Shown here: piece by piece, positions 16,735-17,550 of the stretch
How positions within the stretch are numbered: the first letter of the stretch is position 1
How the letters are laid out: each line of letters opens with the position of its first letter
Assembly (NCBI RefSeq): GCF_003334785.1
Contig: NZ_QOWV01000006.1
DNA: 64,000 nucleotides
Strand: one strand, 5' to 3'
Source of the DNA: Escherichia coli
Lineage (GTDB): Bacteria; Pseudomonadota; Gammaproteobacteria; Enterobacterales; Enterobacteriaceae
Translations under genes and position numbers: made by a program
Notes under the pieces: generated by a model
Database searches by the model: none
What the model saw: the letters and a program-made list of their open reading frames with translations, nothing else
Told to the model about the DNA's origin: nothing

Positions 16735-17550
16735 TTAGCGAAGTGTTTTTGGGGTCATTACCCGACGAGCGCCAACATAGTGGCGCTGCCAGTAGTCTTC
16801 ACTGAGAGAAGTGATTTGAATTTCCTGACCTGTGCGCGGTGACTGAATAAATTTGCCGTTGCCGACATACACGCCGACATGATCGGCTGTGCCGCGTCCC
16901 TGAGTACGGAAAAAGACCAGGTCGCCGTTTTTCAGTTCACTACGTTCGATTGGCGCTGCATCACGCAGGTGATACATTTCATTCGCCGTACGCGGAATAC
17001 GAATTTTCACCAAATCTTTATAAGCGTAATAAACCAGGCCGCTGCAATCAAAACCGGTACGCGGTGAGCTGCCACCCCAACGATATGGCTTACCAATTTG
17101 CTGCATCAGTTTATTCATTGCCACTTTCGTAGCTTTTTGCACCTTCGCTTTGTGCGCGTCGGCAAGAGTTCCTGACGCGGCATTTTTGACTTTCACACAA
17201 TGCGATTTATAGCCCTTACGTTTGGTACACTTTTCGGTAAAGCTGGCTGAGGCCGTTTTATTGACGGCGTGTTTGCTGCGAGTTTTGGCGTTTTTAGAAG
17301 CGGTAATGGAAGATTTTTTAACGGAAGAAGCGGTTTTGCTTTTGGTCGTACTTTTACTGGCGGCTTTTTTCGCTGTTTTCTGGGTCTTTTTGGTGGTTGC
17401 CGTGCTTTTCTTTTTATCTGCTTTTTTGGTGATATGAGTGGTAGCAGAACTCTCCCTGGCTTGCTTTGAAGCATGGGCCATAGGCGTTAAAGGCAGGGTG
17501 GTAAAAAGTAAAGCACAGAGCGTGATCGAAATACGGTTTATCCGCGCCAC
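16735..17550 (-). CDS. mepH: NlpC/P60 peptidoglycan DD-endopeptidase MepH (YdhO)
   Basis: 271-aa ORF with signal peptide, Lys/Ser/Thr-rich linker and C-terminal NlpC/P60 domain (catalytic Cys in DCSGLVYY). Confidence 0.9.
   Translation of the reverse strand: MARINRISITLCALLFTTLPLTPMAHASKQARESSATTHITKKADKKKSTATTKKTQKTAKKAASKSTTKSKTASSVKKSSITASKNAKTRSKHAVNKTASASFTEKCTKRKGYKSHCVKVKNAASGTLADAHKAKVQKATKVAMNKLMQQIGKPYRWGGSSPRTGFDCSGLVYYAYKDLVKIRIPRTANEMYHLRDAAPIERSELKNGDLVFFRTQGRGTADHVGVYVGNGKFIQSPRTGQEIQITSLSEDYWQRHYVGARRVMTPKTLR

Follow-up and report, generated by a model that had tools for sequence, protein, structure and literature searches.

A predicted disordered, polycationic N-terminal tail and a conserved two-cysteine hairpin ahead of the catalytic domain of Escherichia coli MepH

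We have analysed a 64,000-nucleotide stretch of Escherichia coli DNA (contig NZ_QOWV01000006.1 of assembly GCF_003334785.1; hereafter the window), in which the gene mepH (ydhO) encodes a peptidoglycan endopeptidase. An earlier reading of the bare letters, below called the original prediction, had flagged positions 17175-17470 of the window as a low-complexity linker between the signal peptide and the NlpC/P60 catalytic domain of MepH. The analysis indicates that this segment reads as the free N-terminal tail of the mature, soluble, periplasmic MepH rather than as a linker. Residues 28-103 are predicted to be disordered and are strongly basic, and the last fifth of the segment (residues 104-122) appears from alignment and model to be a conserved hairpin with two cysteines. 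The polycationic tail may serve as an electrostatic tether of an otherwise unanchored enzyme, a putative role argued by analogy, to which we assign a probability of about 0.45.

Identity and predicted layout of MepH

The name given to the gene is borne out by synteny and by complete identity of its 816 nucleotides to RefSeq genes annotated as 'peptidoglycan DD-endopeptidase MepH'. MepH (YdhO) of E. coli K-12 is the same gene, with the same length of 271 amino acids and the same neighbours (lhr, grxD and sodB), and no difference was noted. Judged by its sequence, the gene in the window is thus the known and characterised mepH, and the flagged feature is already known as sequence. The gene was present in all 5426 complete E. 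coli genomes searched, with coverage of at least 80% in 5424 of them. From profiles, alignments and a structural model, the following layout is predicted, with a catalytic part that extends over residues 153-271.

16735..17550, minus strand: mepH (ydhO) coding sequence, 271 amino acids, GTG start, stop codon included; from the open reading frame (ORF) and RefSeq identity
17470..17550, minus strand: signal peptide, residues 1-27 (MARINRISITLCALLFTTLPLTPMAHA); predicted signal peptidase I cleavage after A-H-A
17242..17469, minus strand: predicted disordered, polycationic tail proper, rich in K, S, T and A, residues 28-103; from composition, FoldIndex and AlphaFold
17185..17241, minus strand: conserved CX9C motif, modelled as a hairpin, residues 104-122 (FTEKCTKRKGYKSHCVKVK); from the orthologue alignment and AlphaFold
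17095..17166, minus strand: long N-terminal helix, residues 129-152, packed on the catalytic domain in the model; counterpart of helix alpha-1 of MepS
16762..17094, minus strand: NlpC/P60 catalytic domain, residues 153-263; Pfam PF00877, catalytic C169 and H224

Composition of the flagged segment

The flagged positions correspond to MepH residues 27-126, and the 40-residue example quoted for them to residues 42-81 (17308-17427). Residues 27-126 hold 26 lysines, 17 serines, 16 alanines and 16 threonines; these four residues (KSTA) make up 75% of the segment, compared with 27% of residues 127-271. The entropy is 3.14 bits as against 4.14 bits in residues 127-271, and the hydrophobic content 8% as against 30%. 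With 29 lysines and arginines, and only 3 aspartates and glutamates, the segment carries a net charge of +26. When the whole protein was shuffled 5000 times, the observed minimum 40-residue entropy of 2.26 bits was never attained (shuffle mean 3.28, standard deviation 0.11), and neither were 75 KSTA per 100 residues (shuffle mean 51.6, standard deviation 2.4). Among the 70 stop-free frames of at least 150 amino acids in the window, the MepH segment had the lowest entropy. The description of about 100 residues dominated by K, S, T and A is therefore accurate, and the bias exceeds that of all 5000 shuffles.

The DNA of the tail is A-rich, with 43% A and 13% T on the sense strand, 17 AAA codons and six runs of five or more A. 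Tandem Repeats Finder, applied to 16700-17600 with a minimum score of 30, reported no arrays, and the only repeats in the tail DNA are two short two-copy direct repeats. A tandem-repeat origin of the bias was rejected since there is no array, and the segment is best described as cryptic low complexity.

Predicted disorder

The charge-hydropathy index FoldIndex is -0.41 for residues 28-103 and about -0.03 for the folded part of the protein. In the final AlphaFold run, based on an alignment of 80 sequences that included distant representatives, the mean predicted local distance difference test score (pLDDT) was 79. An earlier run with 56 sequences from Enterobacteriaceae only gave a mean pLDDT of 49.9 and was poor throughout, with no contrast between tail and domain. 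The final model is divided as follows.

Residues 31-100: pLDDT 46-59, without secondary structure
Residues 101-110: pLDDT 74, strand 104-109
Residues 111-120: pLDDT 85, loop and then strand 117-122
Residues 121-130: pLDDT 73, connection and start of helix
Residues 131-271: pLDDT 93-98, helix 129-149 (pLDDT 73-98 over its whole length) and catalytic domain

No Pfam domain was found in the tail, and sequence relatives in the Protein Data Bank (PDB) start only at residue ~122. Residues 28-103 of MepH are consequently predicted to be intrinsically disordered, and the segment is basic and likely disordered, as had been proposed. The opposite outcome, a structured and conserved domain, does not apply to residues 28-103, but it does describe about one fifth of the segment, namely residues 104-122.

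A free N-terminal tail rather than a linker

The Pfam scan places the segment, as originally stated, between the signal peptide and the NlpC/P60 domain. The label 'linker' was nevertheless not upheld. Inspection of the sequence revealed a signal peptide of the cleavable type, with a basic n-region, a short hydrophobic core and an A-H-A|S cleavage site. Its length is fixed at 27 residues in 105 full-length orthologues, and among the 56 orthologues used for residue conservation A27 is conserved in at least 90% and S28 is invariant. The same inspection found no lipobox before C12, where the preceding residues are I-T-L, and Pfam found no second domain upstream, the signal peptide being the only upstream element. 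Since the signal peptide is of the cleavable type and without a lipobox, the segment would not link two parts but constitute the free N-terminal tail of a soluble protein after export; a lipoprotein or membrane-tether reading was rejected on sequence grounds. Voedts et al. likewise used residues 28-271 as recombinant mature MepH, which was active on sacculi, and DD-endopeptidase activity on 4-3 cross-links has been reported for purified MepH 28-271.

The CX9C hairpin

Residues 104-122 are modelled as a beta-hairpin with strands 104-109 and 117-122 (pLDDT 74-85). Among the 56 orthologues C118 is invariant, and C108, K107, T109, R111, K112, G113 and K115 are kept in at least 90%. A CX9-10C motif also occurs in two more distant representatives, P0122 and P0126. 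From the strand ranges C108 is placed opposite C118 in the model, and a periplasmic disulfide between the two is likely. Alignment and model together mark the last fifth of the flagged segment as a conserved hairpin, and not as low-complexity drift.

Variation between species

A protein search yielded 120 relatives, which were aligned; 105 full-length sequences were used for composition and 56 for residue conservation. In the full-length orthologues the lengths of the signal peptide (27 residues), the helix (26) and the catalytic domain (119) are constant, and all length differences fall within the flagged segment, which spans 38-118 residues. The tail proper (the equivalent of residues 28-103) measures 33-95 residues in the 105 orthologues, mostly 66-87. 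The proposal that the segment is prone to length variation was thus confirmed by the orthologue alignment: it is the sole length-variable part of MepH, across species as well as within E. coli.

Identity to the query falls in other genera to 35-60% in the flagged segment, compared with 87-97% in the catalytic domain. The composition of the tail is kept in the 105 orthologues, with a median KSTA fraction of 0.74, K+R of 0.23-0.34, D+E of 0.01-0.08 and a median hydrophobic fraction of 0.06. In distant representatives from clustering at 50%, too, the N-terminal region is basic and of low complexity, with ~50-230 residues among which K, S, T, A or P abound. The tail therefore appears, from these sequences, to be constrained in composition and approximate length and not in sequence.

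Compared with Escherichia albertii, the ratio of non-synonymous to synonymous divergence (dN/dS) is 0.15 for the tail, 0.15 for the hairpin region, 0.03 for the helix and 0.017 for the catalytic domain. The tail is under purifying selection that is ~9 times more relaxed than that on the catalytic domain.

Length alleles within E. coli

The positions at which tail length changes within E. coli include the following.

17377..17384, minus strand: site of a common 12-base-pair (QKAS) insertion or deletion; the long allele has CCAGAAAGCCAG before CCAGAAAACAG; from DNA and protein alignment
17296..17334, minus strand: exact 9-nucleotide direct repeats 30 nucleotides apart (AGAAGCGGT on the plus strand), matching the 10-amino-acid deletion of variant P0008

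The long allele of mepH has 828 bases and encodes 275 amino acids, with a 7-base-pair direct repeat CCAGAAA at a 12-base-pair period; the window holds the short, 271-amino-acid allele. When complete E. coli genomes were searched with two junction-specific megablast queries, neither of which was able to seed on the other allele, the long junction was found in 1848 and the short junction in 3526 of the 5426 genomes, with 52 unclassified. The long state is also that of E. albertii and other genera, so that the short allele probably arose by deletion. A long allele from an O111:H8 strain differs from mepH of the window by the 12-base-pair insertion alone, and this identity suggests recurrence or recombination at the site.

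Rarer protein clusters carry in-frame deletions of 9-61 residues, with an inferred junction microhomology of 1-9 nucleotides. In P0008 residues 73-82 are inferred to be deleted, with a 9-nucleotide junction homology (ACCGCTTCT). P0045 and P0047 share one 61-residue in-frame deletion (residues 63-123; 17182-17364) between two GCCGC/'AAS' sites, which removes most of the tail together with the CX9C hairpin. It is found on a 271- and on a 275-amino-acid background, in one assembly each, which points to a recurrent event or to recombination. All large-deletion clusters are single sequences. Slippage at short direct repeats in A-rich DNA is a plausible cause of the length changes, judging by the junctions. 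Length differences in mepH between strains, 271 versus 275 amino acids and the rare deletions, should be taken as natural polymorphisms and not as errors.

The catalytic domain and related enzymes

The sole Pfam domain of MepH is NlpC/P60 (PF00877; E = 2.3e-36, residues 153-263, full model 1-105). There were no other Pfam matches at E <= 0.001, the weak ones (Presenilin, Ycf1, Mucin) being compositional, and the LysM, SH3b, SPOR, OmpA-like and PG_binding profiles gave no match in residues 28-126. C169, in a D-C-S-G motif, and H224 are invariant in the 80-sequence alignment down to ~31% identity. Foldseek matched the model to MepS/Spr, LytE, RipA and others with a probability of 1.00 over 123-150 columns, at a root-mean-square deviation of about 2 Å, and with target-normalised template modelling scores mostly of 0.8-0.9 for single-domain targets. 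The longest of these alignments (143-150 columns) were with NlpI-bound MepS (8xud and 8xup), which has an extended first helix. Profile, catalytic residues and predicted fold all fit an NlpC/P60 peptidase (PF00877, MEROPS C40). The best NCBIfam model is that of MepS (NF008096), with 86 bits compared with a cutoff of 186, and by sequence MepH is classed as a paralogue of MepS and not as MepS itself.

MepS (Spr) shares with MepH the catalytic fold, an N-terminal helix, a disordered N-terminal region and its standing as a substrate of Prc and NlpI. Unlike MepH, it is a lipoprotein whose disordered segment has ~36 residues, is non-basic and binds NlpI through hydrophobic residues. MepH, on the other hand, has no lipobox and has a ~76-residue tail with a net charge of ~+20 and a CX9C hairpin. 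LytE and Listeria p60/Iap resemble MepH in having low complexity rich in S, T, K and N ahead of the NlpC/P60 domain, and HMMER aligns part of the MepH tail with such spacers (NF010495 over residues 22-264; LytE, 8i2e, over 51-263). In LytE and p60/Iap the stretches of low complexity lie between folded modules that bind the wall (LysM or SH3) and join them, whereas in MepH Pfam found no wall-binding module and the tail stands alone. Compared with other NlpC/P60 spacers and with the N-terminus of MepS, the MepH tail is long, strongly basic and free-ended, and is then followed by the CX9C hairpin.

Possible role of the tail

Three endopeptidases are redundantly essential in E. coli, and MepH, one of them, is held at a low level by Prc and NlpI (PMC8996183, PMC11789061). 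A literature search, which left most subscription journals and the original description from 2012 outside, found no published analysis of its N-terminal region and no experimental data on disorder.

The proposed mechanism is as follows. After cleavage between A27 and S28, residues 28-103 would form a disordered cationic tail, followed by the hairpin, the helix and the catalytic domain. With ~76 residues and a net charge of ~+20, the tail could act as a non-specific, multivalent electrostatic tether to the carboxylate-rich, anionic peptidoglycan, and possibly also to anionic membrane surfaces or lipids. Such a tether would keep MepH concentrated on, or threaded into, its substrate, and the hairpin might give the tail a disulfide-stabilised base or offer a partner a site of contact. 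A tether is proposed because MepH is without a recognisable anchoring module, unlike MepS, which is lipid-anchored, and MepM, which has a LysM domain. It is further supported by the fact that composition and charge are kept while the sequence drifts, and that basic N-terminal regions recur in distant homologues. Binding to peptidoglycan or to the outer membrane, as in the original prediction, is in our view a plausible guess.

A precedent is offered by Bacillus subtilis, where the extracytoplasmic disordered regions of RsgI and PBP1 act via composition and disorder; they tolerate swapping and scrambling, and an interaction with gaps in the mesh of the wall has been proposed for them (Brunet et al. 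2022, PMC9732909). Like the MepH tail, these regions are located outside the cytoplasm on cell-wall-related proteins, are rich in charged and polar residues, poor in hydrophobic ones, and poorly conserved in sequence (PMC9732909). They differ from it in that they are Gram-positive and C-terminal, and belong to membrane-anchored proteins, a synthase and an anti-sigma factor, not to a hydrolase. Wall-gap sensing has been proposed for the RsgI and PBP1 regions and is not extended here to the MepH tail.

Some points weigh against the tether. The disorder call rests on AlphaFold confidence and the charge-hydropathy index. Some rare alleles have lost most of the tail and keep 33-49 of its residues, and two of them (P0045 and P0047) are without the hairpin, showing that the tail is not strictly required for persistence of the gene. 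The purified MepH that is active on sacculi comprised the whole of residues 28-271. Finally, selection on the fine tuning of the tail may be weak, since the cell needs mepH only when mepS and mepM are missing (PMC11789061).

The same variability could mean that the tail has no specific function and is a tolerated filler that drifts by replication slippage, at most aiding solubility or export. The wide variation in sequence and length, the two alleles of 271 and 275 amino acids that are both common in E. coli, the natural in-frame deletions of up to 61 residues and the ~9-fold higher dN/dS than in the catalytic domain would all be expected of such a filler. However, composition, charge and length (mostly 66-87 residues) are kept across genera and the feature recurs in distant homologues, a dN/dS of 0.15 is well below 1, the large deletions are confined to single-sequence clusters, and the lack of any array found by Tandem Repeats Finder makes a simple runaway repeat expansion an improbable source. 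We consider this account somewhat unlikely.

It is also conceivable, but unlikely, that the tail is a regulatory handle, an unstructured region or adaptor contact by which MepH is recognised and degraded by NlpI-Prc. The level of MepH is under the control of Prc, in part by way of NlpI (PMC8996183, PMC11789061); in MepS the binding of NlpI requires the disordered N-terminus, which folds onto this partner (PMC11211486), and the Foldseek matches show the N-terminal helix to be common to MepH and NlpI-bound MepS. On the other hand, binding of MepS to NlpI needs the hydrophobic residues L24, F31, L34, V35 and V38, which extend helix alpha-1 (PMC11211486), whereas the MepH tail is only ~6-8% hydrophobic and not conserved in sequence; a contact of this kind would more readily be expected of the conserved helix 129-152 or of the hairpin. 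Furthermore, Prc is described as recognising the C-terminal tails of its substrates (PMC11211486), and much of the degradation of MepH is independent of NlpI (PMC11789061).

If the signal peptide were left uncleaved, the segment would after all be a true linker, running from the inner membrane to the catalytic domain and letting it reach the peptidoglycan layer. A disordered stretch of ~76 residues could span the periplasm, and tethered cell-wall factors with disordered linkers do exist, for instance the Lpo factors (PMC9732909). The canonical A-H-A|S site, the short hydrophobic core, the conservation of A27 and S28 and the missing lipobox, together with the use of 28-271 as mature MepH by other groups, nevertheless make this very improbable.

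The tether may, lastly, be only part of a wider scheme, in which the tail is a sequence-independent polycationic module that targets MepH, an otherwise unanchored 'space-maker', to particular states of the mesh (pores, high negative charge), while a DsbA-dependent hairpin makes the activity or stability of MepH respond to redox conditions in the envelope. We regard this extension as doubtful.

Overlapping open reading frames

Three ORFs in other frames overlap the tail, and all were judged to be non-coding.

17193..17474, minus strand: overlapping ORF of 93 amino acids in another frame, judged non-coding
17222-17437, plus strand: overlapping ORF of 71 amino acids, judged non-coding
17269-17469, plus strand: overlapping ORF of 66 amino acids, judged non-coding

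The original prediction had held that the low complexity produces spurious overlapping ORFs. The three ORFs exist and are judged, from their sequences, to be spurious, but they are not special to the segment, as the catalytic half of the gene, too, is covered by stop-free stretches of 57-93 codons. Stops are slightly sparser in the tail (14 per 228 nucleotides) than in the catalytic part (28 per 357 nucleotides), and all natural insertions and deletions keep the mepH frame, in which the tail has the dN/dS of 0.15 given above.

One could imagine that the stretch is conserved in DNA because of an overlapping gene or RNA element, such as an alternative-frame ORF or an antisense RNA; the three ORFs of 66-93 amino acids stay open in E. 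albertii, and synonymous divergence (dS) is 0.23 in the tail compared with 0.77 in the catalytic part. This is scarcely credible given the comparable stop-free stretches over the catalytic part, the lack of any Rfam family over mepH in a search of 16500-18000, the regional nature of the low divergence, which includes the signal peptide, the intergenic region and grxD, and the make-up of the alternative frames, which are low-complexity strings rich in K/P/R or F/L as expected from A-rich DNA. An overlapping gene was rejected on the first and third of these grounds, and the ORFs should not be annotated.

The comparison with the E. albertii locus (17200-17883) gave a nucleotide identity of 91-98% and a dS of 0-0.23 for the 5' third of mepH, i.e. 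the signal peptide and tail, and of 84-89% with a dS of 0.77 for the catalytic part. The 5' third is thus more conserved in DNA, yet changes more in protein, than the catalytic part. Low divergence is seen likewise in the signal peptide, in grxD and in much of the intergenic region (94-98%, with one bin of 84% at 17700-17799), and looks like a regional effect of recombination or local constraint.

One database protein, P0124, starts with QPPKRPRKQRKKPPVKVRPK, which is the tail DNA (~17330-17400) translated in the +1 frame, the frame of the 93-amino-acid ORF, before it goes over into MepH; the entry represents a frameshifted gene call. The A-runs of the tail invite sequencing or annotation errors of this kind.

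Genomic setting

The gene is flanked by sodB (16026-16607, minus strand) on one side, and by grxD (17884-18231, plus strand) and lhr (18282-22898, minus strand) on the other. The order lhr-grxD-mepH-sodB is also found in a second E. coli strain and in E. albertii. A consensus scan suggested two putative signals.

17611..17640, minus strand: promoter-like site upstream of mepH, TTAACT, 18-nucleotide spacer, TAGAAT (9/12 matches); putative
16702..16731, minus strand: terminator-like hairpin of 13 pairs followed by a T-run, directly 3' of the mepH stop; strong, putative

In E. coli TUM2805 (NZ_CP128950.1, a 4.09-Mb genome; positions 2503-2616 of the extracted locus) only the last 116 nucleotides of mepH are left. 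This remnant, annotated as a partial 'endopeptidase' pseudogene, abuts grxD directly and represents a natural loss of mepH. Among the complete E. coli genomes searched, one has mepH in two places, and one copy, of the long allele, is on a record whose type is given as plasmid. These plasmid or duplicate copies could stem from duplication, from chromosomal DNA carried by a plasmid or from a wrongly typed replicon.

A match below threshold to the SodB 5' UTR (untranslated region) thermometer of Rfam was found at 16578-16682 on the minus strand, over the start and leader of sodB (31 bits compared with a gathering cutoff of 98; E = 0.0017). Elsewhere in the window, at 42844-45066 on the minus strand, a 740-amino-acid ORF resembles RsxC/RnfC, a subunit in electron transport. 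About six tandem copies of a unit of ~28 residues make up its C-terminal third; they form the second-lowest-entropy protein segment in the window and are overlapped by long ORFs in other frames.

Implications

What had been flagged is an ordinary compositional feature of a well-known gene, and it was correctly described as such; the conserved hairpin and the quantified length polymorphism are modest additions. For E. coli to grow its cell wall has to be opened, and MepH is among the three endopeptidases, redundantly essential, that do so. Outside its catalytic fold MepH has only the tail and the two-cysteine hairpin, which are therefore obvious candidates for substrate finding or for recognition in degradation. 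If the doubtful reading as a sequence-independent targeting module were true, the tail would correspond, in a Gram-negative bacterium and on a hydrolase, to the wall-sensing disordered regions that RsgI and PBP1 carry in B. subtilis.

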